A stretch of 58,335 nt of DNA from a virus (lineage: Duplodnaviria > Caudoviricetes), in IMG/VR virus record IMGVR_UViG_3300048578_000131, positions 1-58,335 of that record; one strand, 5' to 3'. The notes beneath the pieces are model-generated. The model was not told the origin of the DNA. It searched no databases and saw only the letters and a list, made by a program, of their open reading frames with translations. Positions within the stretch are counted from its first letter, which is position 1. Each line of letters starts with the position of its first letter. The position numbers were made by a program, and so were the translations under genes. Positions 15,397-58,093 of this stretch are shown one piece after another.

Positions 15397-16082
15397 CCGC
15401 CGCGCGCCCTGCGCACCATCTCGGCCGGCGTCATGCCGGCAAGCGGATTGGCCGGGATCTTCCCGCGCCCCGCCTTGCCCCAGAAGAATTCCCAATCGCC
15501 GACCGAAGCGGTGTCCTGATAGAAATTATCGGTCGCGCTGCGCAACCGCTGCGACACGTCCGATCGGGTGTCCGGATTGTACCGCGTCATCTCCTGCGTA
15601 TGAGAGACGCAAGTGAGGACAACGCCGCCCTCCTCGTTCTCGGCAGGCGTCGTGATCTCGATCTTGTCGACGAAGCCCGCGGACCGGCATTCTGCGGGAG
15701 CAACCATCAGCCGCGTCACCGAATCGAACAGGCCGCGGAATACTTGCACCGGCGCCTGTTTCGCATCATAGGTCCGCACCAGCGTGTTGACCCGATCGAC
15801 CACCTGCGACAGCTTCACCGTCACGGTCTGGACGGTGATATTGGAGACCAGCGGGATATCGCTGATCTCGATCAGCCCGCCGGCGCCTTCGAAAATGCGC
15901 TCGTCTGCCGAGCCAGCGTCAGGGTCCATCACATCGCATGTGATCTGCCAGACATCCGACCAGTAATGATCCGAAACCGGGGTGCCCGTGTCGCGCGTAC
16001 GCACTGTGATCGAAAAGAAATCACGCGCCACAAGACGACGCGCCGCAAGAGCGGCGAGGATTTCGGGAGGGAAAGATCGCAT
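15393..16082 (-). CDS. Minor tail protein (DUF2163-like)
   Basis: Position between the distal tail and hub genes; GFVDKIEI, RSDVSQRLR. Confidence 0.7.
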   Translation of the reverse strand: MRSFPPEILAALAARRLVARDFFSITVRTRDTGTPVSDHYWSDVWQITCDVMDPDAGSADERIFEGAGGLIEISDIPLVSNITVQTVTVKLSQVVDRVNTLVRTYDAKQAPVQVFRGLFDSVTRLMVAPAECRSAGFVDKIEITTPAENEEGGVVLTCVSHTQEMTRYNPDTRSDVSQRLRSATDNFYQDTASVGDWEFFWGKAGRGKIPANPLAGMTPAEMVRRARGG

Positions 16083-20861: not shown

Positions 20862-21214
20862 GTCGCCACGCCCTTCTCGCACAGCATCTCCAGGACCCGG
20901 CCCTGCCTATGCGTAGCCTGCTCCGGATCGATGATGCTGCGGATATTGTAGACCTCGCCGGTCCGCTCATTTTTCACGCGCCAGGCTTCCGTGACCTGCC
21001 GCGTCTGAGCCGACACCCGCACCGTGATGTTCGCCAGATGCGTTCCCTGCAGTCGCGACGCGAGAACGCTTTCGCCGCCGAGCCTTGGCTTGATGTTCGC
21101 GGCCACCGTGAATTCAGGAGCATCCGGAAACTCACCTTCGGAATTGCCGTATCCATCCGATGTGGCGGCCCGCTGGTAGAAGCCGACACGGTCGCGCAAG
21201 TCACCGGCTTGCAT
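20858..21214 (-). CDS. Head closure / head-tail adaptor
   Basis: MQAGDLRDRV, DGYGN, YNIRSI. Confidence 0.88.
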   Translation of the reverse strand: MQAGDLRDRVGFYQRAATSDGYGNSEGEFPDAPEFTVAANIKPRLGGESVLASRLQGTHLANITVRVSAQTRQVTEAWRVKNERTGEVYNIRSIIDPEQATHRQGRVLEMLCEKGVAT

Positions 21215-24726: not shown

Positions 24727-24990
24727 TTATCCTCGTGGCTGCGAGGAATCGGCTTGTTCATTCAAAATGCCAGACCAGCTACGATCACCGGCCGCAAGCG
24801 CAAGCACCGCTACGAGCTCGCAACGCCGCCAACGGTTCGTACCGGGACCGACCTTCAGCGGCGGCGGGAAGCGACCCGCCTTGATTCCGCGCCAAAGTGT
24901 AGAGCGGTGGATGGGTGTGCTTTCGCCGCCGATAATCCGGCAGGCCGCAACCTCATCCACAAGATCGTATCGAGCCTCTAACTGTGACAT
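24727..24990 (-). CDS. AlpA-like HTH protein
   Basis: IHRSTLWRGIKAGRFPPPLKVG...NRW. Confidence 0.85.
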   Translation of the reverse strand: MSQLEARYDLVDEVAACRIIGGESTPIHRSTLWRGIKAGRFPPPLKVGPGTNRWRRCELVAVLALAAGDRSWSGILNEQADSSQPRG

Positions 24991-31286: not shown

Positions 31287-32548
31287 GCTGCCTTCCTTTC
31301 GTCGCGCTCTTCAAGTAGCCACGATCGCAAAGCATTGCGGATGGCATTGGACGATTGTTGCTGCTGACCAAGCTGACTCAGCGGGACGAGATTCGACTGG
31401 ACTGTCAGGTCATCGCCACCGTCAACCGCTGGCATGTTATCGAGCTTGCGCAACTCGTTTCGCGTACGCAGACCGTTCTGGGACAGCGTCGCCATCAGCG
31501 ATGCGCGACCGGCGCTGTCGGCGCGCAGAAGCCCTTCGAAATTGAATTCGAAGAATATCCCAGCCTCCCGGTCCGAAGCGGTGACAAGCCGCCGGTTCAC
31601 CGCCGCCTCGATGCGCTTCAGATACGCCCGGAGCCCCAGCACCAGCCAGCCGAGAATGATCTGCTCAATGCCAGACCCCCACATCGTCTGCCCTTCCTGG
31701 GCATGACCGATCAGGATCGGCGGCACACCCATCCAGCGACAGACATCCGCAACCGAGAAATTGCGCGCCATCAAAAGTTCGGCGTCACGCGGCGAGATAT
31801 TGAAATTGCCCCACTCAAAACCGGGGGGGACAACGATCCCCTTGTTCTGACCTTCGATTCCCTCACCGGGCTTGAGGTAGTTCTCGTAGAACTGCTGACG
31901 CTGCTCCGGATCCATCACGGCCGGTGGCTTCCAGTAGCCCGCAGCCCGAAGCCCCTTATTGAACAAGCGCGACGCCGCCTTTTCGGCGGCCGTCGCACCA
32001 CTGAGGGACCGCCCCGCATAACTGATTGGAGAAAGACCTTCGTCGCCGTCGATACCAAAGCCGCGGATGTGAAACACCTTCTCCGGCGGCAAGTATTCGA
32101 CGCGCCCGCGATCAATTGTCTTGTACCGCAGCCGGTTCGTCTCCGGCTCACGATCTGTTCGGCAGAGCACCTCACGGAATGGCTCCAGCGCGACGATTCG
32201 ATCTCCAATGGACCGCTTCTCGCAATAGGAGTTGCCGTCGATACAGATCGGAGCGACACGGCCCTCCCACCACTCAACGGCAGTCTGCTCGGCATTGGGG
32301 GCGTAGTTCAGCAGTTCGTACAATCGATGATCCGGACGCGCGACGCGATCAGCACCACTACGTTCAAAAACACCACCAGGCAGCGTTGCAACCGTTTCCG
32401 TAATGAGCTTCGTGCTGGACCACCATGACGACAGCTTCATGGCCGCACCCGCGGTCATGCAGTCGGAATCGGAGTCGCCATCACCAACATAAACGATATC
32501 AGACAATCGCCCGCGGCGGTTGCGACGAAGCCAGCTCCAGAACGACAT
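31283..32548 (-). CDS. Portal protein, HK97 family
   Basis: VFHIRGFG, GLSPI, VCRWMGVPP, EGLLRADS, NELRKLDN. Confidence 0.97.
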   Translation of the reverse strand: MSFWSWLRRNRRGRLSDIVYVGDGDSDSDCMTAGAAMKLSSWWSSTKLITETVATLPGGVFERSGADRVARPDHRLYELLNYAPNAEQTAVEWWEGRVAPICIDGNSYCEKRSIGDRIVALEPFREVLCRTDREPETNRLRYKTIDRGRVEYLPPEKVFHIRGFGIDGDEGLSPISYAGRSLSGATAAEKAASRLFNKGLRAAGYWKPPAVMDPEQRQQFYENYLKPGEGIEGQNKGIVVPPGFEWGNFNISPRDAELLMARNFSVADVCRWMGVPPILIGHAQEGQTMWGSGIEQIILGWLVLGLRAYLKRIEAAVNRRLVTASDREAGIFFEFNFEGLLRADSAGRASLMATLSQNGLRTRNELRKLDNMPAVDGGDDLTVQSNLVPLSQLGQQQQSSNAIRNALRSWLLEERDERKAA

Positions 32549-34245
32549 CAGATGGCCACCGCCGGATGCTTCAACCAGCCGTCCATGTCAAAGACGGGCT
32601 TCGCCTCCGGATTCCAGCTCATTGGAATCGTCGCACAGAACGCCGCATGCAGCGGATCGATTTTCGCCCGGCCGGCAACCTGCTTCGTGATCATGTTGCC
32701 ATTCGCCTTTATCTCGACCTTGGCGTTGCCGACGACCCAGTTCATCATCTCGGACCCGCAATGCGACACCGTCCCGTCGGACAGCTTGTGCTCGAGACCC
32801 CAGATCGCCGGCGACAACGCCGGCCCCTGGATCAACCGCACCAGCATCTCACCAGTAATGCCGATGCCGGCCAGCGCCTCGATCATCGCCGCCACCGAGT
32901 TCGGATCGAATCCGACGGCCTTCTTTTCCGGCAACAACCCAGCATCCTTCACCATCGCGATATCCGCGATGATCAGCGGGATGATGTCTCCGGGCTTCTG
33001 ACGGATGATCAGTGACCGCTCCTCCGCGAAGTCGCGAAGTCGCGGGGCGATCTCCTTCCGCGTCTCCAACACATCCTGGACGCAAAATGCTTTGGTCCAG
33101 AGCAGCCAGCGTCGTGTGACCTTCTCGCGGCCCATGACAGCAAGGCCGAATAGATCGTCAAGACCGCCAACATCGAAGCCGATCGTACACACCTCCGATC
33201 GCGCGATCAGCGCCGGCAGAGTCAACGTCTTGTCAGCACAGGCCTCCCAATAGTCCGCACCACGCCAGCCGTCGTTTGAAAGTCCCTGTCCAATCTCGAC
33301 ATTGAGATGCTTCGCGAAGAAGCCGTTGAGTTGCGGCTTTCCGGCACGCGCGGCCTCATCGTGCTTGACGGACAGATACTGCTCGTCGACCGATGCTCCC
33401 ATGTTCGGGTTGGTGACGAACCAGTAATCCTTCCTCTGGTAGGCCTTCTCTTCGAGCAGATGCGATGGATATTCGTAGAGGACAGGCAGGCTGCCCGGCA
33501 CCACGATCTGGCCGTCGCGAATGGCGCGGAATTCCTTCAGCTTTTGTGCAAACACACCGGCCGGCTGATCCTCAGACTGCGTCGACAGGTAGATCACGAA
33601 CCCTTCGGGGCGGGACGCGAGCCCTCCGGTTGCCTCAAGAAGCATATTCTCCGCATTCGCGCGCTTGCCGAAGACGTGCAGTTCATCAACCAGAAGTCCG
33701 ATCGTCTTCTTACCGGACACCACTTCGGTGTCTGCGGCGATCACCTTCAGGAAGGCGCCCGTATTGCGATGCTCGATCACGCGCCCGGCGCTCGGCTTCA
33801 GGATGGCGCGCAGCTCGGTGTCGGCCATCACCATGTCACGCGCTGGCGCATAGGAGTTGTCGGCAACCTCTTTCGTCGGCGCCAGAATGTAGAATTCGCC
33901 GGACTGCCGCCAATTGCGGATCAGCGCCGTGATCATGATGCCGGCAGCGAGCGTCGACTTGCCGTTCTTCTTGCTTATCAGCAGGAAGAAGTTCTGGATG
34001 TGCCGGCGGCCTTCCTCCGCGTCATAGGCCCCGAACACCGCACCGACGAAATCGAGGATCCAGTCCCGCCCTGCCTCGCCGAAGGTCGGACGTCCGGCCG
34101 CGTCGACAATGCGCAGCGACCGGAAAATCTCCAGCGCCGATTCCGCCTCCGCCGGAAACAGCGGCTCGAACGGGATCAGCGAGCGGTGCGGACTGGCGAG
34201 AATGCGGTCCTGCCAATCTAGGCAGGCCGTCGACCATGTCTTCAC
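32548..34245 (-). CDS. terL: Terminase large subunit
   Basis: ISKKNGKS Walker A, LVDELH Walker B, DVGGLDDL, KIDPLHA. Confidence 0.97.
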   Translation of the reverse strand: MKTWSTACLDWQDRILASPHRSLIPFEPLFPAEAESALEIFRSLRIVDAAGRPTFGEAGRDWILDFVGAVFGAYDAEEGRRHIQNFFLLISKKNGKSTLAAGIMITALIRNWRQSGEFYILAPTKEVADNSYAPARDMVMADTELRAILKPSAGRVIEHRNTGAFLKVIAADTEVVSGKKTIGLLVDELHVFGKRANAENMLLEATGGLASRPEGFVIYLSTQSEDQPAGVFAQKLKEFRAIRDGQIVVPGSLPVLYEYPSHLLEEKAYQRKDYWFVTNPNMGASVDEQYLSVKHDEAARAGKPQLNGFFAKHLNVEIGQGLSNDGWRGADYWEACADKTLTLPALIARSEVCTIGFDVGGLDDLFGLAVMGREKVTRRWLLWTKAFCVQDVLETRKEIAPRLRDFAEERSLIIRQKPGDIIPLIIADIAMVKDAGLLPEKKAVGFDPNSVAAMIEALAGIGITGEMLVRLIQGPALSPAIWGLEHKLSDGTVSHCGSEMMNWVVGNAKVEIKANGNMITKQVAGRAKIDPLHAAFCATIPMSWNPEAKPVFDMDGWLKHPAVAI

Positions 34246-39891: not shown

Positions 39892-40118
39892 TTGACCTCC
39901 GCGAGACGATGCAGTTCAGCTTCGACGTCGGCCGCGGCCGACATCAGCGGCCGGTACAGTTCAGCGAAGTCCTGGGTATTGAACGCGGTGACAATCAGAT
40001 CCCGCGCGACGTCGCCTGCGGGGCGGTTGAGCATGTTCGCCTCGATCATCAGGCGGCGGTAGACCGACCGTGATATCGGGATAGTGAGAGTGATGTCGGG
40101 TTTGGTGGTCACCGTCAT
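39888..40118 (-). CDS. Small putative DNA-binding protein
   Basis: Ribbon-helix-helix-like pattern; coupled ORF. Confidence 0.5.
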   Translation of the reverse strand: MTVTTKPDITLTIPISRSVYRRLMIEANMLNRPAGDVARDLIVTAFNTQDFAELYRPLMSAAADVEAELHRLAEVK

Positions 40119-40666
40119 GCCGCACCTTCAAGCGAGCGGCGAAGATCGACGACGAGACCGATGCCTGACCGGCGCAGCGCCGAATTCGCGCGGTGGCCCA
40201 TGCCGATCAGGACGATGCCGGTGCCGGGCGAGGTGCCGATGGTTCCGGCAAGATGTTGCGTGATCCTGCCCTTGCGGTCGACCGAGGTCATGGCCTCGCC
40301 GCGGACGAACTTCGTCTTACCGCGCGGAAACAAAAGCGTTTCGGCTTTCGGCGCGACGTAATCGTGAAACCAGTCCGCCGATGTATAGGCTCGCACGAGT
40401 GCGATACCGTTGGCGTGCTCAAAGAATTTGCGCAGCCATGGCACCTGACCGTGTCGGCCGCCGAAGGGTGGATTAACGAAGACGAGGCCCGACCATGACT
40501 GTGTCAGCCCGTCTTCCGCCTTGGTGTAGACCTTGCGAGCCGGCACCCAGTGATGCAGGCCCGGCGAACATGGATCCAGATCGAAGGTCAGTCCCAATGC
40601 CTCGAAGTAATAAGGCGGGGTGTACCATTCGTCGGAATGACCGAGTGAGGGCTCGTGTTCGCTCAT
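40115..40666 (-). CDS. Phage-type N6-adenine DNA methyltransferase
   Basis: DEWYTP, FDLDPCS, DGLTQSW, VFVNPPF. Confidence 0.88.
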   Translation of the reverse strand: MSEHEPSLGHSDEWYTPPYYFEALGLTFDLDPCSPGLHHWVPARKVYTKAEDGLTQSWSGLVFVNPPFGGRHGQVPWLRKFFEHANGIALVRAYTSADWFHDYVAPKAETLLFPRGKTKFVRGEAMTSVDRKGRITQHLAGTIGTSPGTGIVLIGMGHRANSALRRSGIGLVVDLRRSLEGAA

Positions 40667-41664
40667 TCGGCGGCCTCCGCCTGCAAAGGTCGCCCGATCC
40701 GCACGTCGCTGAAAATGCCAGCATCGGCGCGGATGCGGCGCTCCGCCATTTCGACATATTCGGGATTGAGTTCGATCAGGATGGCGTTGCGACCAAGACG
40801 ATCCGCGACGAGGGCGGTGGTGCCGGCGCCGCCGAAAGGATCAAGGACAGTTCCGCCGGCGGGACATCCGGCCCTGATGCATCGCTCAGCCAGTGTCGGC
40901 GGCATTGTCGCAAAGTGCGCGTCGGGGTAATTTTCTGGCCCGAGCATCCAGACGGAGCGAGCGTTTCGCTTTCCGCCGACACCTTCCCACGGCTCGTCTT
41001 GGCCGCGTCCGCCCTTGCTGATCTGCGCGCCGCGTTTGAATCCGTTGCCGGACGCGTGATCGGAAACCGCATCCTCTGCGATGGCGTCCGCATCGTGGAA
41101 GTAGTGCCGGCTTTTGCTGAGGTGAAAAATGAACTCGTGGCTACGCGTACAGCGGTCGCGCACGGGCTCCGGCATTGGAGCTTTCTTTCCCCAAACGATA
41201 TCTTCGCGCAGATACCAGCCATCATCTCGGAGCGCGAATGCGACGAGCCACGGAATGCCTATCAGGTCTTTCTGCTTATAGCCGTCAGGTGGCTTGATCC
41301 ACTTGCGGCCGATAGCGCCGGAGTTTACCGCCTCGCTTTGAAAGAATTGTCGCGATCCGCGGTTACTCGCTTGCTTCTGGTGCGGGCTATCGTCCGGGTT
41401 GCCGCCCCGGCCGGACGCGGCGTAACTGTCGCCGAGATTGAGCCAAAGCGTCCCGTCATCGCGTAGCACGCGGCGCACCTCCGCGAACACCGTGCGCATT
41501 GCCTCGACGAACTCATTCGGCGAAGTTTCCATCCCGATCTGGCCGGCGGCCCCATAGTCCCGCAGACCGAAGTAGGGAGGCGATGTGACAACACAATGCA
41601 CCGATTCATCCGGCAATTCGCGGAGGCGATCTCGACAATCGCCAAGGAGGATGCGAACCGACAT
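40663..41664 (-). CDS. N4-cytosine/N6-adenine DNA methyltransferase, beta class
   Basis: VTSPPY, LWLNLGD, HFATMP, VLDPFGGAGTT. Confidence 0.93.
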   Translation of the reverse strand: MSVRILLGDCRDRLRELPDESVHCVVTSPPYFGLRDYGAAGQIGMETSPNEFVEAMRTVFAEVRRVLRDDGTLWLNLGDSYAASGRGGNPDDSPHQKQASNRGSRQFFQSEAVNSGAIGRKWIKPPDGYKQKDLIGIPWLVAFALRDDGWYLREDIVWGKKAPMPEPVRDRCTRSHEFIFHLSKSRHYFHDADAIAEDAVSDHASGNGFKRGAQISKGGRGQDEPWEGVGGKRNARSVWMLGPENYPDAHFATMPPTLAERCIRAGCPAGGTVLDPFGGAGTTALVADRLGRNAILIELNPEYVEMAERRIRADAGIFSDVRIGRPLQAEAAE

Positions 41665-43328
41665 CACATCCTCCCTTCCTCCCCCTCGCGGGGGCGCCGG
41701 AGGAAGTCTGGAATCTCCAGATCGATGTCTTCGGGATGAACTTGTAAGCATTCCTTACAGGTTGGTTCAGGCCGACACTGTGGTTGTGCATCCTGCGGTG
41801 CGGTCATCGTTCCAGTGGAGCAAGGTGACACGGTTTGCTCGGCCGCCGGCGGCACAAGGCCCATGTCTTCGAGGCCGCGAAGCAGTTCGGCTTCGGTCAT
41901 TTCTGGCGGAACGGGATCGTCGGCGATCTCGCCGGTCTCAGGATCAAACTGCGATTTGCGGATGACAGGATGCGCGGTAAAGCGCGCAGCATCGTCTGGA
42001 TGCGTGAGCGCGGCCTTTTGACCTGGCGCAATCCAGAACATGCGGGTGCCGCGGCGGGCAGCCGCATGCGGCATCCAGATCATCCAGAGATAGGCCGTCA
42101 GCGTTACGCCGTCCGGCTCATATCGCCCCTTGTGCAGCGGCACGCGCTCGGCAAATTGCGCGATCAGCGTCGGCGGATTGGGCTTGAAGATGCGCTCGTA
42201 TCGGCCCTGACCTTCCAGCCACTGCAGGCGAAGGAACATCGCGACACCGACCTTCGCATGCGAAATGGCCCGCAGCACGAATTGCTCCGCCTTATCATTG
42301 AAGGGCGGGTTCGTGATGATCCAGTCGCATTGCGGGATGTCGGTCAGATCACCGTCGATGAAATTGAAGATCTGCGGGCTATAGCCATAGCCGTGCACGT
42401 CGGTGGCGAGAACGCCGTCGAAATATTCGGTCAGGACATCGGCGATATGGCCCTCGCCACAGGCCGGCTCCCATGCGGTGCCGAACGTGTGCACCATCAA
42501 TTCCGGCATCACCACATCCATCAATGCGCGCGTGGCCCATGGCGGGGTTGGGAAGAAATCGAGCGAGTCTGCCGGCTCCTGCCGGCGCGGCGCGATGGCG
42601 CGGTCAGCATTGGGCAACGCACGTTCAACCTCCTCGCGTTGCTCCGTCTCCGGCAACCTGGCGATATGTTCCGCCTTAGAAATCTGGATTGCCGCCTGCT
42701 TAACGGCGGACTGCAGTTCGGGGACCCCGTGGTCACGGACCGCCGCCGCGCTCGCGATCGAGCGCTCCGACACATGCGCTCGCTCTGCCAGATCGGCGCG
42801 GGTTTCAACACGCAAATTTGCGTCTTCTCGGATGCCGATGGCGATCTGCATCGCTCCGACCCTGCGCAAAGTGAGATGGCGTTCGCCGACTTCGGACAGA
42901 CGCTTCGTCACCGCACTGAGGCGCTTGGTGACGATCTGGATATCGATACGGTTGCAGGTCTCTATCTTGGCCCAGGCTTCCGCGAACCAGTCGGCCGACA
43001 CCTCCAGATCGAACAGATCGGACATCGACTGGATGAACACGCGACGACGCGGGCCGAAGGTTGGCGCAGGCAGACCGAACGCACGCGCGTTCCCTGCGGC
43101 TACTTCATAATCAGCCGCCCAATCTGCATAGCCGTTGTCGAGCCGATGGATCAGCGCCACCGCGCTTTTGATTTTCCAGCGCGGGACACCGACACCCCAG
43201 TGATTGCCGCCCATGCGGCGCGACCACACCTCCGCATAGCAATGATCGCAGCCGGGACCGACCTTGGTGCACCCCCACCAGAAATTGACGGTCGCGTCCG
43301 TCCATTCGATCTTTGAGGCGGCGGACAT
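41664..43328 (-). CDS. Chimeric DUF5131(Gp37/68)-N + ParB-like HTH + adenine methyltransferase
   Basis: IEWTDATVN...GCTKVGPGCDHCYAE, SMSDLF; VSERSI; DFFPTPPW, WEPACGEG, ITNPPF. Confidence 0.8.
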   Translation of the reverse strand: MSAASKIEWTDATVNFWWGCTKVGPGCDHCYAEVWSRRMGGNHWGVGVPRWKIKSAVALIHRLDNGYADWAADYEVAAGNARAFGLPAPTFGPRRRVFIQSMSDLFDLEVSADWFAEAWAKIETCNRIDIQIVTKRLSAVTKRLSEVGERHLTLRRVGAMQIAIGIREDANLRVETRADLAERAHVSERSIASAAAVRDHGVPELQSAVKQAAIQISKAEHIARLPETEQREEVERALPNADRAIAPRRQEPADSLDFFPTPPWATRALMDVVMPELMVHTFGTAWEPACGEGHIADVLTEYFDGVLATDVHGYGYSPQIFNFIDGDLTDIPQCDWIITNPPFNDKAEQFVLRAISHAKVGVAMFLRLQWLEGQGRYERIFKPNPPTLIAQFAERVPLHKGRYEPDGVTLTAYLWMIWMPHAAARRGTRMFWIAPGQKAALTHPDDAARFTAHPVIRKSQFDPETGEIADDPVPPEMTEAELLRGLEDMGLVPPAAEQTVSPCSTGTMTAPQDAQPQCRPEPTCKECLQVHPEDIDLEIPDFLRRPREGEEGRM

Positions 43329-43330
43329 GA

Positions 43331-43867
43331 TCAGGAGCCCTTCCGCTTGCGCGCGTAGTCAGCACGATCAAGTTCGGCGAGGATCAGGGCGCCGGCCTTG
43401 ACGAGATCGCGGCGAAAGTCTGACTGTTTCCACCATCGCCGCGACCACGGCCACTCTGTCGGCGGCGATGAATATCCATCTCCAGTCGGAGCCATGTGCC
43501 CCGTCCTCACCGTCGCATAAAGAGCGTAGCAGCCCCCCGCCTTCGCAAGCTCGCCTTCGGCATGCGCGAAATCATGCTCTGGCGTCCAGCCCTCAAGCTC
43601 GATCTGGCGACGTCGCTCCGCCACGATGGCGAGCGCGCCCGGCGAGAGCGGGTGACGGATATGCAGGGCCTCGAACACGCGGCGCAGCGCATATGAGCGC
43701 ACGATCGATACGGTCGTCATGAACGCGCCGATAATGAGATTCTGAGTGAGCGTGATCGGGAATCCGAGAGCGGGAAGAATGATCGCGTTGGCGATCATGG
43801 CGACGCCCAAGCCCACTGCAATGTTGATCAGGCTTTCGACGAAGGACATGAGGCGGGATTGTTTCAT
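43331..43867 (-). CDS. Two-domain phage hypothetical protein
   Basis: N-terminal TM pair; AERRRQ...EGWTPEHD...WPW...RRDLVKAGALILAE. Confidence 0.75.
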   Translation of the reverse strand: MKQSRLMSFVESLINIAVGLGVAMIANAIILPALGFPITLTQNLIIGAFMTTVSIVRSYALRRVFEALHIRHPLSPGALAIVAERRRQIELEGWTPEHDFAHAEGELAKAGGCYALYATVRTGHMAPTGDGYSSPPTEWPWSRRWWKQSDFRRDLVKAGALILAELDRADYARKRKGS

Positions 43868-44298
43868 GCGGCGAGCGCCTCCCGCACAATTTCGTCAGAC
43901 ACATCGAAAGGGTTGCGCTGCTTACCGCGATACGGAATCGGCCAAGCAAATTTCTTCACCACTGGCGAGCGCTTGATGGCGTATCGCCCGGGCGTCCAAT
44001 CGCCACAGGCCACATCTTCCGCCGTTGCGCCCAACTCAGCATTGACTGTCCGCACACAATCAACGACCTCAACGAGCCCAATCAACGCGCCGCGCGGGAG
44101 GTCCGTGCCCCAATGGGGGCCAAACTCACTATCGAGGATATCCTCGAGATCGGGGCTGACGGACTTGAATTCGATATGTTTCGTTGCATGCACGAGCAAC
44201 GGCCCTCGATAGTTGAGCGGCCAACTTCGTGTTTCGTGGATTTTGCAGGGCGATAACCACAGCGACGCCCATGGCTGCCAGAGCGACCAGGCTTTCAC
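43864..44298 (-). CDS. ASCH-domain protein
   Basis: SLWQPWASL, KIHETRSW, YRGPLLVHA, GALIGLV, PIPYRGKQ. Confidence 0.88.
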   Translation of the reverse strand: MKAWSLWQPWASLWLSPCKIHETRSWPLNYRGPLLVHATKHIEFKSVSPDLEDILDSEFGPHWGTDLPRGALIGLVEVVDCVRTVNAELGATAEDVACGDWTPGRYAIKRSPVVKKFAWPIPYRGKQRNPFDVSDEIVREALAA

Positions 44299-44442
44299 GG
44301 AAGTACCCCCGTGAACCTGATCCCGAGAGCGGCGGGGGCCATCAGGAAGATGAGATAGGCGATGGCGAGGATGATGGTTTTCATCCAACCATCCCCGCGA
44401 TGCCGAGAAGAATCACCACGAACAGGAGAGCATCGATCCGGA

Positions 44443-44622
44443 TCACGGCACCCTCCGGTCGATCATCTCGTGGTCGGTATCGTCATTGCGGTCGATCAGG
44501 GATGCGGCATAGGCAAGGCCTGCGCCGTAGCCTGCAACGAAGATCGCAAGCGCAACGATGACCAATCCATCCGATTCAGGACAGATCACGCGATCCGAAA
44601 GTTTGAACCTGAACCAAGGCAT
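44443..44622 (-). CDS. Small membrane protein
   Basis: GGAGG RBS; single TM segment. Confidence 0.45.
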   Translation of the reverse strand: MPWFRFKLSDRVICPESDGLVIVALAIFVAGYGAGLAYAASLIDRNDDTDHEMIDRRVP

Positions 44623-44717
44623 GCGCCCCTCCCCCGAATAAAATCTCGGTTGAACTGGTGAAGATACGCGGGGACGCAACAAGCTACAGAAGCGACATAG
44701 AGATCTGCGGCTAACTA

Positions 44718-44885
44718 GTTTCGCTGACCCCGCGAAACAGGGGTGACGGAGACTACCTGCCATGGCACGTGAGCGTGTAGGTGGTTTCGCTGACCCCGCG
44801 AAACAGGGGTGACGGAGACTGCTCGGTCTTTTCCCAGCGATAGGGTGAGGTTTCGCTGACCCCGCGAAACAGGGGTGACGGAGAC
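44718..44885 (-). CRISPR. Mini CRISPR array: 3 identical 36-bp repeats, 2 spacers of 30 bp
   Basis: Repeat (minus strand) GTCTCCGTCACCCCTGTTTCGCGGGGTCAGCGAAAC at 44850-44885, 44784-44819 and 44718-44753; unique spacers at 44820-44849 and 44754-44783; ends in GAAAC. Confidence 0.93.
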
Positions 44886-44887
44886 GA

Positions 44888-46234
44888 TCATGCCGCAACC
44901 TCGCGCGGCATCACGGAATTCTGTTCTTCCGGCTGCGAAAAAACTGCGCAGGCGGCCGTATATAGCAGTTTCGCTTGCGCGCGATGTGGATTGGAGGATT
45001 GGTCCAGCGGTGCGGCGACATCGATAAGCGTGCCACCGCGGCTTTCCAGCGCGTGCCTCAATGCGAGTCTGAAACTCGCAGGTGCTGTATGGTTCTTTAC
45101 TCCTTTTCCCGACAGATCAATTTTTTGGATCGCAACGACCGCATAGCGTCGCGCGATTGCAGCCGCCGCCTCTCGCTGCGCCAGCATGCGACGCCGATGC
45201 AGTGCGCGGCCGAAAGCTTCAGCCGCCACACGATCGGCATCCGCGCCGCTATCCTCGGCGCCGCGCAACATTTCCTTGAAGGCGCCCCAGTCCGCCTCAT
45301 AGCCGTAATCCATGGTCAGCGTCCGGGTAGCCCCGCCGTCGAACAGCATGGCGTAGGGTTGCAGCCCATCCTCGCCTTCATGGGACCGCCAGGTAAGCGA
45401 CAGTCCCGCACAGACCCGGTCCGTGCGCGTCGTGACCTGCATGGCGCACACGAATACAACCGACCATTCCGGCCGCTCGAAACAATCGCCATCCCGGTTG
45501 ACGACGCGGCGCATCGTCCGGATCGCGCGCACTTCCTTCACGACCGCAGCCGGCGGCAGCGGGCGGTGCATGACAAAATCGAGAGCGAAGCGCGCAGGTC
45601 CACGCGGATTGCGCGGCCCGCGCAGCGTCATATCGATCCGCGCGAGCCGGTAGCCCGCGCGGTGCGAGCCTTTGCGGCGGCGCGCCGCATTCGGATCGGA
45701 AATGTATGACAGCGCACATTGCGAGAATCCGATCATCTGCGCCGGCGTGCGGCCATTCATGATCTGGTTGACGATCGCGTCACCGCAGGCCCGCTCGAAA
45801 TTATAGACCTGGGCGCCACGCGCCTTCGCAGCCGCACGGGCGCCATCGAACTGGAACACGACCGCGTTGTAATCGCCCCAATGCAGGCCTGCCGCGGCCG
45901 CATTCTGCTTGGCCTCGCGCTGCGCAGCGACGCGCCACGATCCGAGCGCGAGCAGCGCAGGCTTCGCGGTCTCGGCGCGCCGGCGATGTTCGTCCTTTGC
46001 GACGGCGAACGCCGCCCTTCGTTGAGTTGCATCCTTGATGGTTTCGGCACGTGCGCGGGCCTGCGTCAGCGCATCCCGGTTCAGCAGCGCAGCCTTGCGG
46101 CTGGCATATTCATCCTCGATGGCGATCAACCGCTTCCAGAGGCTCCGCTTGAGCGCGAGCGCACGATCGAACTCAGCGCCATCACCGGCCGGAGCGAACG
46201 CGCGGTACTTGTAGGCGCGGATCAGCTTTCGCAT
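44888..46234 (-). CDS. Compact Cas12m-like (type V-U1/TnpB-derived) effector, predicted nuclease-dead
   Basis: AYKY...P, LWKRLIAIE, GLHWGDYNAV, VMHRPLP, W-S-V-V-F; RuvC-I AGLSLTWR, RuvC-II VVAIQKIDL, APASFRLAL; abuts the array. Confidence 0.78.
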   Translation of the reverse strand: MRKLIRAYKYRAFAPAGDGAEFDRALALKRSLWKRLIAIEDEYASRKAALLNRDALTQARARAETIKDATQRRAAFAVAKDEHRRRAETAKPALLALGSWRVAAQREAKQNAAAAGLHWGDYNAVVFQFDGARAAAKARGAQVYNFERACGDAIVNQIMNGRTPAQMIGFSQCALSYISDPNAARRRKGSHRAGYRLARIDMTLRGPRNPRGPARFALDFVMHRPLPPAAVVKEVRAIRTMRRVVNRDGDCFERPEWSVVFVCAMQVTTRTDRVCAGLSLTWRSHEGEDGLQPYAMLFDGGATRTLTMDYGYEADWGAFKEMLRGAEDSGADADRVAAEAFGRALHRRRMLAQREAAAAIARRYAVVAIQKIDLSGKGVKNHTAPASFRLALRHALESRGGTLIDVAAPLDQSSNPHRAQAKLLYTAACAVFSQPEEQNSVMPREVAA

Positions 46235-47015
46235 GGCGGGGTCCTGTCGCTATCGATGCGGAGTCGATTGCCGTTCCTGTCGTGGAATTCAGTCCAGTGA
46301 CGGTTGTTTTCGTGACGACCGGTCCTCTTCATTCCGCAGGTCCAGCAATGCTGGATGGTGTGGTGTTCGTCGGGGCGGAATTTCTGGGACCAGGTGTGAT
46401 TGCGGTGCCGGAGGAAAGAAGTTGCAGTCACCGGAGTGACCGCGCGCGCCGCTATCGAAACAGCGGCGGGGATATTGAGGAATTCACGCGCGACGCGATG
46501 ACCTTGAACGGCACCTTTGTCTCCTGCTTGTGCAGGCCCCGGACCGATCCGCAGGTCACCTTTCTGAAAGCCGACAGTCGCGCTTGCCGACCGAAGCCTC
46601 GCGGCCGGGGTCTCAGACGGGAATTTGCCCCTTGGCTGCCGCCCCTCGCGCACGGCATTTAACTTGGGCCCAAGCACCAAGGGATGTGAGGCGCGCACCT
46701 TGCGGCCGCCTGCCTCAGCGAGAACTGTGAATTGATGCCGGGCAATGCGCGCGCTGCAGACGCGCACACCCTCAACAGCGTCCGGGTCCGCTGCCGTCAG
46801 CAATACCGCCGGCTGGAGGCCGCTGACGATCAGCCTTCCAGTCAGCCCGTGACCGGCGATCGACCGGGCACAGCTTGCGCTCTTCGCTCTGGGGTAAGTG
46901 AATTGGTTTCGGCGCGCCGGAGAAGCATGCGTCACCGCATGCTCACTCTCTCCGCTGCGGAAGAGACTTCCTTCAACGACGCGCCGAACTGTGAATTGAG
47001 GTGCCGTCTCTCCGG

Positions 47016-47219
47016 CTATTTGCTGACGACGACTCTCGACAGCGGGCCGCCGACATAAGGCGCCTCTGCCACTGCGACCATCATCGAGCTGACGATCTTT
47101 TCGAAATGCTCTTCGGCCTTCTTGCGATCGAGCGCGCCATTGGTGTCGAACTCGATTCTGACCGTCAGCTTGGCTCCGAAGGGCGGGTTCGTAATCTGCA
47201 GCGACTTGATGCGTTTCAT
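47016..47219 (-). CDS. Small hypothetical protein
   Basis: GAGG RBS; ATGA overlap with the upstream gene. Confidence 0.5.
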   Translation of the reverse strand: MKRIKSLQITNPPFGAKLTVRIEFDTNGALDRKKAEEHFEKIVSSMMVAVAEAPYVGGPLSRVVVSK

Positions 47220-47653
47220 TTTGGCCTCGATTGTTCGTGAATGACCCGTAGTGATTGCTCCGCATCCCGCGCGCGCTCTTCGCTTCGCACGAGATCGGTG
47301 AACCATCGCGCATCGCAGCCGTGCATGAAGGCGCGGAAGAAGGGTTCTCCGTGCCTGGAGCGGATGAGGATGCGCAGGAATTCGGGTGACGGCTTCCGCC
47401 GCTGATCGGCATCGCGCAGCATGAAGTATCGGCACGATGTGAGCGGCCAGCCGGTGAAGAGATGAAGCTGATAGCCGGGGTCCTTGGTGCCGCAGATTTG
47501 TAAAGCGGCATCGTAGAACCATCCGCGATCTTCACTTCCGCTTTCGGAAAAGATTTCCGGTTCCGGAAATGCATCACTTCCGGAATCGGAAGCGACGACG
47601 CGTGCAACCGCGGACGCGGGCGATAGAGTCCCATGCATGAACGCACCCCACAC
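47216..47653 (-). CDS. Hypothetical protein, CII-like position
   Basis: Downstream of cro; RKPSPEFLRILIRS; start uncertain. Confidence 0.55.
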   Translation of the reverse strand: MWGAFMHGTLSPASAVARVVASDSGSDAFPEPEIFSESGSEDRGWFYDAALQICGTKDPGYQLHLFTGWPLTSCRYFMLRDADQRRKPSPEFLRILIRSRHGEPFFRAFMHGCDARWFTDLVRSEERARDAEQSLRVIHEQSRPK

Positions 47654-48422
47654 AAACGCAACGAAACAGAAATCCTCTCGACACCGGCGGTGTGCCTCCC
47701 CGCTCCGGTGCGAAGGCGGGCGGATGACCGATGATGTGGTCCCCGGCGTACGGTCGTCCGCCCGCTGCAGCTTGATGGTGAGATGCGATGGCCGGTAGCA
47801 TGCAGGCGGGCCGCCGCCGGCCCCTGTGGCGCCGTGACAGGCGCGGCCGCCGCGAATTTCAGGAAATTGCGCCGCGAGATGCCGCTCATGACGGCACCCC
47901 GGCGGTTCCGCGCTGCGTCAAATGACACATCGCGGGGAGGTATTTCACCTGCTTGGTCGTGTAATTATGCGACAACGCATGTGACGCGTATCTACATGTC
48001 TCCGGGCGGCAATAGCGCCGCGCTATGGAGACTGTGTGGAATGTCGAAGGTTGAGAGATCGGCCGGTGAGGCCGTGAATGCCGTGCTGCGGGTGATGGGA
48101 ACCCGGGATGGTCGGATCCGGCTTGTGTTCGATATCGATGTCGAGACCGCGATGGCGCTGATAATGCGCATCCTGCGGGCGGTGCGATGAGCGGAGTTGC
48201 AACCGTGGCGCTATTCGCGGACACCGAATGCGACGGCCCGCGTCCGCAAGTTGCAAGCGGCGCGAAGTATAGTCGAAATGTATGGCGTTTTGAATATGAC
48301 GATATGCCCCTGCGCCACCGCACAACTTTCGATTGACCAACCAGATTGGAACAAGAGTAAAGTTCCGCCCCGTACCGGGAACCGGACGAAGATCCGGCCT
48401 GGATTGTTCCGGGGAGAGAACC

Positions 48423-48731
48423 ATGACGAGCGAGCCCAGACCGGCCGTCGTCCCGGCGGCCGAAGTGAATCTGATCGAGCCAGCACACCTCAACGATATT
48501 TTCGTGACGGACATCGGCCCAATTCAATCTTTGGGAAGTTGCGCGAGGTTCATCCTCGTTGCGGAAAATCCCGTCTGCTATTCGGAACACCCGGAGCAGA
48601 TCGCGGTTTCGCGCCTGGTCATCCCGATCGAATGCCTGCCGCGCATGATCATGAAAGCCTTCCGATTCACCTGCCAGGAAATTGGCAAGCGTTGGACCGG
48701 CACCTTCAGGAGCCACGCGACCCGTCATTGA
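48423..48731 (+). CDS. Hypothetical protein convergent with cro
   Basis: GGAGAG RBS, 102 codons. Confidence 0.5.
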   Translation: MTSEPRPAVVPAAEVNLIEPAHLNDIFVTDIGPIQSLGSCARFILVAENPVCYSEHPEQIAVSRLVIPIECLPRMIMKAFRFTCQEIGKRWTGTFRSHATRH

Positions 48732-48937
48732 GTGGCCTCGCTCGCAAGCATGCTGTCCTGCGACTGGATGTAGGCCGCGACGCGCTCGACCATTGCCAAA
48801 CTCGGCTGCCGGCCGCGCCGGAGGTCACCGACGAAGGCACCATCGCCAACGGCGGCCTTCCCGAACGCGGTAGCGGTCATCCCGCTGCGGTTCAGGAAGG
48901 CATCAATGTCTGCAAGGAACGACTCGCCCGTCATCAT
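48725..48937 (-). CDS. Cro-like repressor
   Basis: IDAFLNRSGMTATAFGKAAVGD...LRRGRQPSL; divergent from cI. Confidence 0.88.
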   Translation of the reverse strand: MMTGESFLADIDAFLNRSGMTATAFGKAAVGDGAFVGDLRRGRQPSLAMVERVAAYIQSQDSMLASEATQ

Positions 48938-48949
48938 AGGCTAAATATG

Positions 48950-48985
48950 TAGGATTTTTCCTATATTGCAACAGGAAACTTCCTA
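48950..48985. promoter_or_regulatory. OR-like operators
   Basis: TAGGATTTTTCCTA (48950-48963) and CAGGAAACTTCCTA (48972-48985); further TTTTCCTAT half-sites up to about 49024. Confidence 0.8.
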
Positions 48986-49022
48986 TTCACGTCCTATGCG
49001 GGGCTTTTCCTATGCTTTTCCT

Positions 49023-49718
49023 ATGGATAAAGCCCCTCTTCCTGACCCTGTGCGGACGCTGATTAGGTCGCGATTGGACGAGTTGAAGGATGCGAAACGC
49101 CGGCCGGGCGAAAAGAGGCCGACGATGCGCAGTCTCTCGCTCGACATGGATCGAAACGAAACGTGGCTCCACCAATTCCTGTCAAAGGGCTCCCCTGTCG
49201 AATTAGACGAACGCGCTAGGAAGTTCCTCGCCGCGGCACTTGACCTGGACGAAAGGTTGCTCCGGCATGAAGACATGATTCAGCCCGCGAGATCGATCGA
49301 ACGAGAACGAAAAAGCCTCAACGAAACGAGCGCCCTACCAGTGAAGGGGCACGGGGCCGCAGGGCCAGACGGCAGCTTTGAATGGAATGGCGAAACGGTC
49401 GACGAAATCCCTAGGCCGCACGCCCTAATCGGCGTGAAGGATGCCTATGCAATCTACGTGGCGGGCGACTCAATGGAGGACCGGTACTACTCTGGAGAGA
49501 CGGTCTATGTGCATCCGTGGAAACCGATACACAAAGGTCATTTCGTTGTTGTCCAAGTGCGGGGCGATGGCGGCGATCACCTCGGCTATATCAAGCGTTT
49601 TCTGAGCCGAGATCACCGTAGACTAAGGCTCGAACAATTGAACCCGAAAAAGGTCATCGAGATTCCGGCTCAAAAAGTCATTTCCGTACACCGGATCATT
49701 ATGGGAGGCGATGGATGA
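49023..49718 (+). CDS. CI-like repressor with S24 peptidase domain
   Basis: N-terminal HTH; VAGDSMED (catalytic Ser), YIKRF (catalytic Lys); start could be 48966. Confidence 0.92.
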   Translation: MDKAPLPDPVRTLIRSRLDELKDAKRRPGEKRPTMRSLSLDMDRNETWLHQFLSKGSPVELDERARKFLAAALDLDERLLRHEDMIQPARSIERERKSLNETSALPVKGHGAAGPDGSFEWNGETVDEIPRPHALIGVKDAYAIYVAGDSMEDRYYSGETVYVHPWKPIHKGHFVVVQVRGDGGDHLGYIKRFLSRDHRRLRLEQLNPKKVIEIPAQKVISVHRIIMGGDG

Positions 49719-52367: not shown

Positions 52368-52646
52368 GTGAAGATGATGGATGCATTCGGCCACGTCCTC
52401 GACGAAATGGACAACGAAGCGAAGTACCAGCCCGCCAACGAGCCGCGGCAGCAGCTTGTCGCGCGCATCAAGCGCAGCAGCAAATACGCCTATCAGGCGC
52501 CGAAGACCAAGGGCGGATGGTTCGACGTTCGGGTCGTGCCGGACATGGGCTACGGCCTGCGTGGCAACAACAACAATTACCGCTTCTCCGATGTGGTGTT
52601 CGGTGTGAGGCTTGCTGACGGATCCGTGGCGGAGCTCAAGTCGTGA
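52368..52646 (+). CDS. Hypothetical protein
   Basis: Coupled to the next gene. Confidence 0.55.
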   Translation: MKMMDAFGHVLDEMDNEAKYQPANEPRQQLVARIKRSSKYAYQAPKTKGGWFDVRVVPDMGYGLRGNNNNYRFSDVVFGVRLADGSVAELKS

Positions 52647-53419
52647 CCCACCCGATGCTACCCGCAGTCATCGCGGAGATTCCGACGCTCGGCCCCGAGA
52701 CCTTGTTCGTCGCGAACCATAGCGGCGGCAAGGACAGCATGGCGATGCTGGCCCGGTTGCTCCAGATCGTCCCGCGCGAGCAAATCCTTGTCGTGCACGC
52801 TTCACTTGGCGAAGCCGAATGGCCGGGCGCTTTGGACAAGGCCGAACAGCACGCCGACGCGGAAGGTCTGCCGTTTGTAGTGGCCCGCTCCGTCAAGACA
52901 TTCTTCGAGATGGTCGAGCATCGGTATAAGGTGCGGCCCGGCCCGAACTCGCCGTGCTGGCCATCGGCAGCCAATCGACAGTGCACCAGCGACCTGAAAC
53001 GCGGACCGATCGAGCGCGAGGTCCGGCGCTACGCGAAGCATCATGGGTTCACGACCATCGTGTCATGCATGGGTATCCGCGCCCAGGAGTCCTGCCAGCG
53101 CGCGAAGGCCGTCGCCTTCCGCCGCAATGAACGCGGGTCGATCGCTGGTCGCGACTGGTACGAGTGGCTGCCTATTCACGGCCTGAGCGAAGCCGAGGTA
53201 TTTGCGACGATCGAGCGTTCGCCGCTGTTGCCACATTACGCTTACGCGCTCGGCAACGATCGGCTCTCCTGCATCTTCTGCATCATGGGCAGCCGCAACG
53301 ATCTGAGGAACGGCGCCGAGCAGCATCCTGAACTTTACGCGCGCTATCGCGAGATCGAGCAGCGCACGGGCTACACGATGCATCAGAGCCGCAAGTCACT
53401 GGCGGAGCTAACCGCATGA
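52643..53419 (+). CDS. Second PAPS reductase-family protein
   Basis: NHSGGKDS, CTSDLKRGP, GIRAQES, WLPIH, RLSCIFC. Confidence 0.9.
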   Translation: MTHPMLPAVIAEIPTLGPETLFVANHSGGKDSMAMLARLLQIVPREQILVVHASLGEAEWPGALDKAEQHADAEGLPFVVARSVKTFFEMVEHRYKVRPGPNSPCWPSAANRQCTSDLKRGPIEREVRRYAKHHGFTTIVSCMGIRAQESCQRAKAVAFRRNERGSIAGRDWYEWLPIHGLSEAEVFATIERSPLLPHYAYALGNDRLSCIFCIMGSRNDLRNGAEQHPELYARYREIEQRTGYTMHQSRKSLAELTA

Positions 53420-55600: not shown

Positions 55601-55948
55601 ATGTCTCAGCCTGCAAAAGACTATCAGCCCAGCACATGGCAGGTGTTGAACCTGCCGATCGAAGAATTGCGACGGCTCGAAACCGAAGGGCCGAAGCCGA
55701 AGCCTTTTATCCGCACGATCGACACCGCCAAGCTGACGGCGGATTCGCAACTCGCGCTGATCTCGATCTGCGGCCATCCGATCTGCCGGGTGATGACCGA
55801 GACGATGCGCACGACCCATTGCACCTGCGGCTGGCGCACCAGGCTCTACAGCCGGAAATTCGGAGCAGGCACCGACCACGCTTACCGTGTCCAGAGACAT
55901 TTGGCGCAGGCGGCGGATGCCATCAGACCGAGGGTGGACACGCCGTGA
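55601..55948 (+). CDS. Hypothetical protein
   Basis: GGAG RBS; HCTCGW motif. Confidence 0.55.
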   Translation: MSQPAKDYQPSTWQVLNLPIEELRRLETEGPKPKPFIRTIDTAKLTADSQLALISICGHPICRVMTETMRTTHCTCGWRTRLYSRKFGAGTDHAYRVQRHLAQAADAIRPRVDTP

Positions 55949-56859: not shown

Positions 56860-57239
56860 ACCTCTTGCCGCCCTACAACCTCGCCGGTGCGGCGTCCAGA
56901 CTGCACAAGAGCGAGCGCTGGCTCCGGGACTTCCTGTCCGGACGATCCACAGATACCGAAGGCAGGCCCTTTTACCGGCTCGCCGGACGGACCAAACTGT
57001 TCGATGACGTCCACATTCAGAGGCTGTTCGAGGCCCTGCCATGCCCCTCAAGCTTAAAGCCCCCCGCAAAGGCAAAAGCCCGAACTGGTCGATCCGCGGA
57101 GCGTACCTCGGAGTCCGAGTGGACAAGAGTTGCGGAACTCCTAAACGATCCGTCGCTCAAAAGAAGCTCCACGAACTCGAAGGACAAATCGAGCGCGGCG
57201 AGTACCCGCCCAAGGCCAAACCTGACAGTGGTGGCGTAG
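56856..57239 (+). CDS. Excisionase-like DNA-binding protein overlapping the integrase
   Basis: AASRLHKSERWLRD...GRTKLF; immediately upstream of int. Confidence 0.65.
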   Translation: MNLLPPYNLAGAASRLHKSERWLRDFLSGRSTDTEGRPFYRLAGRTKLFDDVHIQRLFEALPCPSSLKPPAKAKARTGRSAERTSESEWTRVAELLNDPSLKRSSTNSKDKSSAASTRPRPNLTVVA

Positions 57240-58093
57240 GGGAGCGCACTTTCTTGACCGCAGCTCGCGTCTACCTGGAAGCCGGTCGTCGGGCACGTTA
57301 CGTCAAATGGCTCATCAGGCACTTCGGCGAGACACCGATCGGTGAGATCGACCAGCAAGCGATCGACGATGCGGCTGTGGCAATCCTCCCACGCGCAACG
57401 CCCGCGACACGGAATACCTGTGTCTACACACCTCTGTCCGCGATCCTCCGCTTCTCAGGAATAGAGATCAAATTGCGGCGCCCGAAGGGCGCGAAGGGCA
57501 CCGTCATCACGGACGCGCTGAATCCGCCAGACGCGGCCGCAATCATCAACGCAGCCCAAAGCTTCGATAAAGAATACGCGCTTCTCCTGCACCTGCTGCT
57601 CTACACCGGCGTTCGGCTCGGCGAGGCGCTACGCCTCACATGGGACAACGTTCGTCTTGACGAGCGGCGGGCATGGATACCGATCCGCAAGAACGGCGAT
57701 CCGCTAGAAGTCCAGCTTCGCGAAGATCTCGCGGAGGCCCTCAGGACTCATCCGCAGCGGATCGACAGCCGCCGCGTGTTCCGCTTTCATCAAGGCGGGC
57801 ATCTGAAACATATGCTCACGCGCGCCAAACTGGTCGCGCTAGGCATGGAATGCCCGACCCGCCGGCCGAAAGGCTGGCGACCACCCGCGCATCGCCTGTC
57901 GTGGGTCAACCACCACACGTTCCGACACACCTGGGCGACCTGGTTGCGCCGGTACGCTGGCATGGACCTGCTGGGCCTGGTATCGACCGGAAACTGGCGC
58001 GACGAGCGCAGCGCGAGGCGCTATACGCACGTAACCACGCGCGAAGAATGGCAGCGCGTCGAACGACTTCCTGCAATCGGTGAAAAACGATGA
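57041..58093 (+). CDS. int: Tyrosine recombinase / integrase
   Basis: TGVRLGE (R), RKNG (K), HTFRHT (HxxR), GNW, RRYTH (Y). Confidence 0.93.
   Translation: MPLKLKAPRKGKSPNWSIRGAYLGVRVDKSCGTPKRSVAQKKLHELEGQIERGEYPPKAKPDSGGVGERTFLTAARVYLEAGRRARYVKWLIRHFGETPIGEIDQQAIDDAAVAILPRATPATRNTCVYTPLSAILRFSGIEIKLRRPKGAKGTVITDALNPPDAAAIINAAQSFDKEYALLLHLLLYTGVRLGEALRLTWDNVRLDERRAWIPIRKNGDPLEVQLREDLAEALRTHPQRIDSRRVFRFHQGGHLKHMLTRAKLVALGMECPTRRPKGWRPPAHRLSWVNHHTFRHTWATWLRRYAGMDLLGLVSTGNWRDERSARRYTHVTTREEWQRVERLPAIGEKR

Follow-up and report, generated by a model that had tools for sequence, protein, structure and literature searches.

Cas12m effectors of type V-M CRISPR systems (formerly V-U1), such as MmCas12m, Cas12m2, GoCas12m and PmCas12m, are described as binding and silencing their targets without cutting them (PMC11013384; PMC10442227). 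In the literature cited here, type V-M systems are further characterized by a gradual decay of the RuvC triad and by the lack of adaptation genes (PMC11013384; PMC10442227; PMC10691335; PMC11656645; PMC12669027), and they are reported from mobile elements, that is, plasmids and some prophages (PMC11656645). Here, we compare with these systems a locus from the virus record IMGVR_UViG_3300048578_000131 (Duplodnaviria; Caudoviricetes), whose 58,335 nt, taken as a whole, are referred to below as the window. On its minus strand, at positions 44718-46234, the window carries a gene for a 448-aa protein, P0001, followed by a three-repeat CRISPR array. The best explanation, which we consider probable, is that this is a working minimal type V-M-like module on a temperate phage that would bind DNA under RNA guidance without cleaving it. 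It is carried by the homology and fold of P0001, the loss of the catalytic acidic residues, of the zinc finger and of the RuvC insertion, the adjacency of the gene and the array, and the conserved structure of the repeats.

The effector gene (44888-46234, minus strand) ends with a TGA at 44890-44888, only 2 nt from the first of three identical 36-nt repeats. All repeats and spacers are given on the minus strand: repeat 1 occupies 44850-44885, repeat 2 occupies 44784-44819, and repeat 3 occupies 44718-44753, with two unique 30-nt spacers between them, spacer 1 at 44820-44849 and spacer 2 at 44754-44783. Exactly three copies of the repeat are found when up to three mismatches are allowed, while none is expected from 100 dinucleotide shuffles. 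The start codon of the gene is credible, as the N-terminus of P0001 aligns with the N-termini of its homologues. Repeat 3 is not degenerate, and hence the 30 nt following it (44688-44717, minus strand), which lack a closing repeat and for which no target was found, could act as a third guide, an uncertain one. The gap between the gene and the array leaves no room for a leader; on the far side, the next likely start codon (44622) comes 95 nt past repeat 3. This start codon belongs to a 59-aa open reading frame (ORF; 44443-44622, minus strand) with a GGAGG-type ribosome site and a hydrophobic middle segment; the longer ORF of 151 aa at 44443-44898, which reads through the array, is likely to be an artefactual extension of this one. 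The Pfam profiles for Cas1, Cas2 and Cas4 did not match anywhere in the 58,335-base record, the completeness of which is estimated by CheckV at 78%, while the control genomes were matched. An Rfam scan of 43500-47500 yielded no match, and the exact repeat was not found elsewhere in IMG/VR or in 185,579 species genomes. The initial annotation, made from the sequence alone, had described the same ORF, repeats and spacers and had noted the absence of a leader and of cas1, cas2 and cas4; on all these points our coordinates, repeat search and profile search agree with it.

No Pfam or NCBIfam family matched P0001 at E ≤ 10. PADLOC profiles for Cas12f (1.9e-12) and Cas12u1 (3.6e-11) matched residues ~53-321, and a sequence search of PDB retrieved the Cas12m chain 23vw_A, with E-values of 5.1e-6 for the single protein and 2e-19 for the family profile, mainly over residues 4-330. 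A tblastn search produced no match in GenBank phages and three distant ones (26-30% identity) in plasmids. The AlphaFold2 model of P0001, built from 89 aligned sequences, had a pLDDT of 93.5 and a pTM of 0.88. In a Foldseek search of PDB, the top four matches of this model were Cas12m2 and Cas12m complexes, with E-values from 1.1e-15 to 2.5e-13 and TMq of 0.65-0.70 (8hhl_A, E 1.1e-15 and TMq 0.70; 8pm4_A, E 6.9e-15), followed by Cas12f (7e-9) and TnpB (1e-7); a fold search of BFVD returned only TnpB-like transposases at TMq of at most 0.47. Therefore, judged by PADLOC, PDB sequence similarity and predicted fold, P0001 sits next to Cas12m, and the WED, REC and RuvC arrangement of the model, a fold check suggested along with the initial annotation, is closest to that of Cas12m2 and Cas12m. 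The motifs from which a Cas12m-like protein had been proposed in the first place, GLHWGDYNAV (residues 116-125), MHRPLP (222-227), GLSLTWR (277-283) and APASFR, are all present in P0001.

To place P0001 among its relatives, a search of 1.84 billion cluster representatives was used, which gave 151 matches at E ≤ 1e-3. Among the matches listed (150 of the 151), ~20 short clusters stand at E ≤ 2e-28; next, past a gap, come mostly proteins of ~530-670 aa with E-values of 7e-17 and weaker, plus some fragments. These longer, Cas12m-sized matches align only to the N-terminal query residues ~4-330. A set of 89 sequences, which leaves out the fragments P0019, P0024 and P0027 and all matches after P0092, consists of 24 short proteins (304-466 aa, including those of the two related loci described below) and 65 long ones (514-673 aa), with none between. 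In the maximum-likelihood tree (IQ-TREE quick search under LG+G4 with 569 columns, rooted at the midpoint only for display), the 24 short sequences, which form ~20 clusters at 50% identity, lie on one side of a branch with SH-aLRT of 100. In a family alignment of 20 sequences, 15 positions are invariant and 25 more are nearly so (at least 90%), most of them Arg, Trp, Tyr, Gly or Ala. The sequence comparisons thus place P0001 in a separate compact clade beside Cas12m. With its 448 aa it is, as initially stated, well below the ~600 aa of described Cas12m. In the literature examined, we found no published Cas12m below ~580 aa and no branch of 400-470-aa proteins lacking the zinc finger, with the provision that the 104-protein alignment of Wu et al. 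(2022) or the V-M tables of PMC10691335 may already include some.

The short proteins differ from the long ones in the catalytic site and in the architecture around it. In a profile alignment, H317, D485 and D579 of Cas12m2 (PDB 8hio) correspond to S279, Q370 and H417 of P0001, and the alignment with the Cas12m-sized relatives supports the same positions. The full acidic triad is found in none of the 24 short sequences, whereas 25 of the 65 long ones have DED. When 19 short sequences were aligned by MAFFT with 15 long ones, none of the 19 had residues in a block of ~75-100 columns that lies between the RuvC-I strand and the helix preceding RuvC-II, and their N-terminal coiled coil (REC) was shorter than in the long ones. 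The Cys-rich zinc finger (TNB) is gone in 14 of the 19, including P0001, which has no Cys in residues 276-428; P0011, P0013, P0018, P0021 and P0025 retain one. By these alignments, P0001 has neither the Cas12m zinc finger (HCCC/CCCC), nor the RuvC insertion, nor any of the described triads. The manual reading in the initial annotation (S279, Q370, no RuvC-III Asp and no zinc finger) is thus borne out by the alignments with relatives and with Cas12m2.

Three loci with DNA are available in all, each on a phage contig: the one in the window and two, L001 and L003, from IMG/VR. In L001 (genome G001), a gene for a 439-aa homologue (38% identity) is followed, after 15 nt, by four 36-nt repeats. In L003 (genome G002), the homologue has 440 aa (34% identity) and matches P0017 identically over 401 residues; ~5 nt past its gene come nine repeats. 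Hence, the array lies directly past the effector stop codon in all three loci (gaps of 2, ~5 and 15 nt), again without adaptation genes, and the search for homologues with adjacent arrays that had been proposed for this locus was successful in two other phages. No neighbouring gene is conserved among the three phages. A scan of IMG/VR for the repeat pattern recovered the two known contigs and a further candidate, L004. The latter, a lone 19-nt match to the core of the L001 and L003 repeats (L004:621-639), falls within coding sequence on an unrelated viral contig of 5.5 kb that has no array, and it was rejected as a chance match.

The repeats of the three loci have about half of their bases in common. 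On the gene strand, the window repeat is predicted to form a stem (nt 11-14 with 23-26) and a pseudoknot (nt 16-22 with 30-36), and for all three repeats a 3-4-bp stem and a 5-7-bp pseudoknot are predicted, the 3' strand of which ends 0-3 nt before the spacer. In the alignment of the three repeats, 27 of 29 cells pair, and both sides have changed in 4 of 10 pairs; with the partner slid by 1-3 columns as a control, pairing falls to 38-53% with 0-1 compensatory pairs. The CRISPR RNA (crRNA) of Cas12m2 is reported to pair C(-22..-17) with G(-8..-3), next to the stem (PMC10442227), and that of PmCas12m to pair (-28..-26) with (-17..-15) and (-23..-20) with (-6..-3) (bioRxiv 10.64898/2026.03.26.714355); the predicted structures agree with both pseudoknots in topology and position. 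Moreover, the last base of all three repeat types is C, and H223 and R224 of P0001, in the MHRPLP motif, align with H269 and R270 of Cas12m2, described as reading C(-1) and stacking on the G(-23):A(-2) pair of the crRNA (PMC10442227). The locus would therefore have, as a prediction, the Cas12m-type stem and pseudoknot abutting the guide, together with the terminal C and the HR motif. The array is likely transcribed in the direction of the gene, for four reasons: it is the gene strand alone that places the pseudoknot next to the guide; degeneracy in the 3' half affects the last repeat of L003, the one farthest from the gene; the L003 repeats vary at their first two nucleotides; and the gap between the gene and the array is too small for a promoter.

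Taken together, this suggests the following mechanism. The effector gene and the three-repeat array would be transcribed as a single RNA, as the array begins 2 nt past the stop codon. Cas12m is described as processing its own pre-crRNA with no need for RuvC (PMC11013384; PMC10442227), so a dead RuvC domain would in principle be no obstacle here. The resulting crRNAs would consist of the 3' part of the repeat, that is, the stem and pseudoknot handle, followed by the spacer, and P0001 would bind the handle via its WED and RuvC domains, as Cas12m does. The complex would then locate complementary double-stranded DNA, presumably in dependence on a protospacer-adjacent motif (PAM), and stay bound without cutting, thus blocking transcription or replication of the target. 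Closely related competing phages, that is, superinfection exclusion, seem the most likely targets, with the carrier's own genes as a serious alternative.

Both possibilities fit the spacers of the two related phages: of these 12 spacers, 5 match the genome that carries them, over 29-30 of 30 nt. Four of the five are among the eight spacers of G002, the complete genome (56 kb, direct terminal repeats) of a phage: spacer 6 matches the tape measure gene (29/29, position 1 differs), spacer 5 the major tail protein gene (29/30, position 6 differs), spacer 1 the head decoration gene (29/30, plus position 1), and spacer 4 a small ORF of unknown function (30/30). The four sites are at 13414-13442, 15797-15826, 20937-20966 and 24841-24870. 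Spacer 1 of G001 has a 30/30 match in the effector gene of the phage itself (G001:37965-37994; L001:6558-6587), in the codons of the conserved RRPLPANARLV stretch. The 12 nt at the start of this spacer also match the window gene at the homologous site, 45555-45566; alone this match is at chance level (E 0.1), yet the position is equivalent.

These matches could mean that the dead effector serves as a programmable transcription factor of the phage, with crRNAs aimed at the phage's own late genes or at the effector gene, for repression in lysogeny, timing of late expression or autoregulation, by analogy with TldR and with crRNA-like Cas autoregulators. As an explanation of the locus we hold this to be unlikely, but it is favored by the two perfect self-matches, one of them in the effector gene. 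Moreover, self-matches would be tolerable for a protein that binds without cutting, and in three of the five the guide carries sense sequence, with the template strand as its expected partner in pairing. Yet the spacers of the window match nothing in their own 58-kb record, the target sites in the relatives lie inside genes rather than at promoters, and their flanks are not shared. In addition, three of the four mismatches in G002 fall in guide positions 1-6 (binomial p ~0.03, post hoc and with small n), which looks more like escape of the carrier than like selection for binding. This favors exclusion of near-identical rivals, with the carrier itself having partly escaped, as does the role in competition between viruses ascribed to viral mini-arrays (PMC11656645). 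The broader proposal that phages have domesticated a stripped-down Cas12m as a ~450-aa, array-programmed transcription factor against their own late structural and effector genes is tentative, and we regard it as rather doubtful.

Several observations weigh against a working RNA-guided module in the window. With up to three mismatches allowed, spacers 1 and 2 occur nowhere else in the window, and they gave neither a significant match in GenBank phages (16-21 nt with E 8 for the best) nor an exact one in IMG/VR; these spacers and the possible third guide match nothing else in the window and nothing in G001 or G002, and the same sequences and the repeats match nothing among the PLSDB plasmids. 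The five self-protospacers of the relatives have no obvious common 5' or 3' flank from which a PAM could be derived. Scans for related loci yielded 18 pattern stretches in genome contigs, and 86 and then 23 in metagenome contigs, none of which was confirmed. The covariation of the repeats is suggestive rather than conclusive, as it comes from three sequences and the structure was derived from the same three. Finally, stable R-loop formation by P0001 may not be guaranteed with the zinc finger (TNB) and the RuvC helical insertion missing: in GoCas12m, this insertion is reported to contact the PAM-distal heteroduplex and, with the REC "roof", to extend the heteroduplex read-out from 12 to 18 bp (PMC11013384). 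Weak partial spacer matches in the window, for example 18/20 at 40435-40454, are at chance level and were discarded. A viral scan that included the subgroup bearing the zinc finger gave 38 stretches, with none confirmed.

The same shortage of targets, together with the loss of all three catalytic positions and two structural elements and the small size of the array, would also be expected if the locus were a decaying remnant, that is, a Cas12m gene that was truncated and inactivated and now has no function, with an array left over. This we consider improbable, since the short form is shared by a whole clade (24 sequences in ~20 clusters, SH-aLRT 100), whose full-length ORFs stay intact across 28-77% identity. 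Decay is also hard to reconcile with 15 invariant positions across 20 sequences, a confidently predicted fold, the identity of the three repeats in the window, and the presence of arrays in all three loci, where the repeats differ and base pairing is preserved.

It is still less probable that P0001 remains a nuclease, cleaving through a rearranged active site as in some TnpB clades. Catalytic rearrangements are described among TnpB and Cas12 proteins (PMC10691335), and some short members have a lone acidic residue at one triad position, namely, Asp at RuvC-I in P0021, Asp at RuvC-II in P0012 and P0015, Glu at RuvC-II in P0017, and Glu at RuvC-III in P0011 and P0025. However, neither Asp nor Glu occurs among the 40 invariant or at least 90% conserved positions of the family, which speaks against relocation of the active site and in favor of conservation as a nucleic-acid-binding protein. 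The triad in the window is S/Q/H, and the perfectly self-matching spacers of the relatives would kill the carrier of a cutting enzyme.

The least probable option, with hardly any chance of being correct, is that a Cas system encoded by the host makes use of the repeats, with which the ORF would have nothing to do, as viral mini-arrays without cas genes are described (PMC11656645; PMC13232261) and the window array has two spacers only, but the adjoining ORF is itself a Cas12m homologue, the repeat varies together with the protein in the three loci while keeping the Cas12m-type handle, and its exact sequence occurs nowhere else in the databases searched.

The setting of the module is that of a temperate phage. 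The window encodes a tyrosine integrase (57041-58093), a tRNA-Arg (55631-55714) and a CI-like repressor with an S24 peptidase domain (48966-49718). The effector gene belongs to a leftward run, divergent in strand from the repressor gene and ~2.7 kb from it, which includes three DNA methyltransferases, DUF7220 and a DUF5131 fusion. By position, this placement fits an early lytic operon. The initial annotation had assumed a cro-controlled early operon; the position and the divergence from the CI-like repressor are in line with this, while the 70-aa cro candidate has no family match and the numbers of predicted promoters and terminators in 44300-49200 equal those in shuffled sequences. A 565-aa ORF at 32548-34245 (minus strand) is 43.5% identical to an ORF of G001 and, from its position and size, probably encodes the large subunit of the terminase.

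Between the repressor region and the effector gene, at 46222-48728 (minus strand), there are ORFs of 568 and 280 aa that have no PHROG match, no Pfam match above the curated cut-off and no counterpart in G001 or G002. The former contains a terminator-like hairpin (46424-46443), and GC content by codon position did not settle the coding status of the ORF at 46222-47928. Just downstream of the CRISPR module, at 40115-43328 (minus strand), three genes for DNA methyltransferases, a Dam-like one, an N6_N4 one and a DUF5131-methyltransferase fusion, stand in a row, which suggests an anti-restriction block. Elsewhere, the window carries two PAPS-reductase-like genes, at 2995-4065 and 52643-53419 (both plus strand), one of them with DUF3440, and an SNF2-type helicase at 745-1974.

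If P0001 does bind DNA under the guidance of crRNA, selection can maintain an effector that has shed its zinc finger and RuvC insertion along with all of the catalytic residues. Such a reduction would parallel that of TldR, but in a CRISPR lineage with multiplexed guides, and type V-M would have a role not just in plasmid competition but also in temperate phages. The self-matching spacers of the relatives make it testable whether phages regulate themselves by CRISPR arrays or exclude near-identical rivals. If the effector were a transcription factor for the phage's own genome, the arrays would be a rewritable regulatory operon for the lysis-lysogeny decision, late-gene timing or autoregulation, and no effector known to be guided by just a short crRNA, with no tracrRNA or omega RNA, would be smaller than this protein. 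A 448-aa binder with a crRNA of ~50-60 nt would also be ~130-150 aa below the Cas12m proteins used in CRISPR interference, base editing and epigenome editing.

Several known systems resemble the locus in part. Viral mini-arrays are likewise short and virus-borne, and are proposed to act in competition between viruses (PMC11656645; PMC13232261), and the spacers of the relatives match near-identical phage genes in a similar manner; however, mini-arrays depend on host Cas proteins, whereas the array in the window travels with its effector. With the effector gene adjacent and the exact repeat absent from IMG/VR and the species genomes, we rejected the solitary mini-array as a description of the locus.

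Cas12f and TnpB have the WED-REC-RuvC core fold and a size similar to that of P0001, and the TnpB guide is encoded right past the 3' end of the gene, as in the window. Both are active nucleases, which P0001 probably is not; they also have a zinc finger, use long guide RNAs (tracrRNA or omega RNA), and score lower in the fold and profile comparisons. TldR proteins are similar in size (~400 aa), in the decay of the RuvC triad, in having lost the zinc finger and RuvC part at the C-terminus, and in being described as prophage-borne RNA-guided repressors (bioRxiv 10.1101/2023.11.30.569447). In the same source, TldR is described with one long omega-RNA-like guide and no CRISPR array, and as descending from TnpB lineages other than Cas12m. 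We rejected the assignment of P0001 to TldR, given the regular 36/30-nt array and the Foldseek E-values (TnpB, 1e-7; Cas12m, 1e-15).

Cas12m remains closest to P0001 in sequence and fold. Both systems consist of a single effector and an array, with no adaptation genes, and have 36-nt repeats with a stem and a pseudoknot, the latter predicted in the window, beside the guide; the proteins share the HR motif for reading C(-1), the GLxWGxYN motif and degenerate RuvC triads. P0001 differs in its size, 448 aa as compared with 577-614 aa in solved or described Cas12m (596, 581 and 610 aa in individual papers; the engineered Cas12m has 581 aa, bioRxiv 10.64898/2026.03.26.714355), in the missing large alpha-helical RuvC insertion and TNB zinc finger, and in the shorter REC coiled coil. 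Its S/Q/H triad is outside the described HEK, HQK, HDD, DED, NED and DND, the clade sets as given in PMC10442227, and NDD (bioRxiv 10.64898/2026.03.26.714355), though P0001 may belong to clade 1 of Wu et al. (2022). The short clade forms a separate long branch, and spacers of its two other phages match their own carrier. A 610-aa Cas12m with an intact triad in a myxophage is reported as the first phage Cas12m (bioRxiv 10.64898/2026.09.14.751636). As degenerate RuvC triads and carriage by phages and plasmids are already described for type V-M (PMC10691335; PMC11656645), the novelty of the system in the window is its reduced architecture rather than a dead nuclease.

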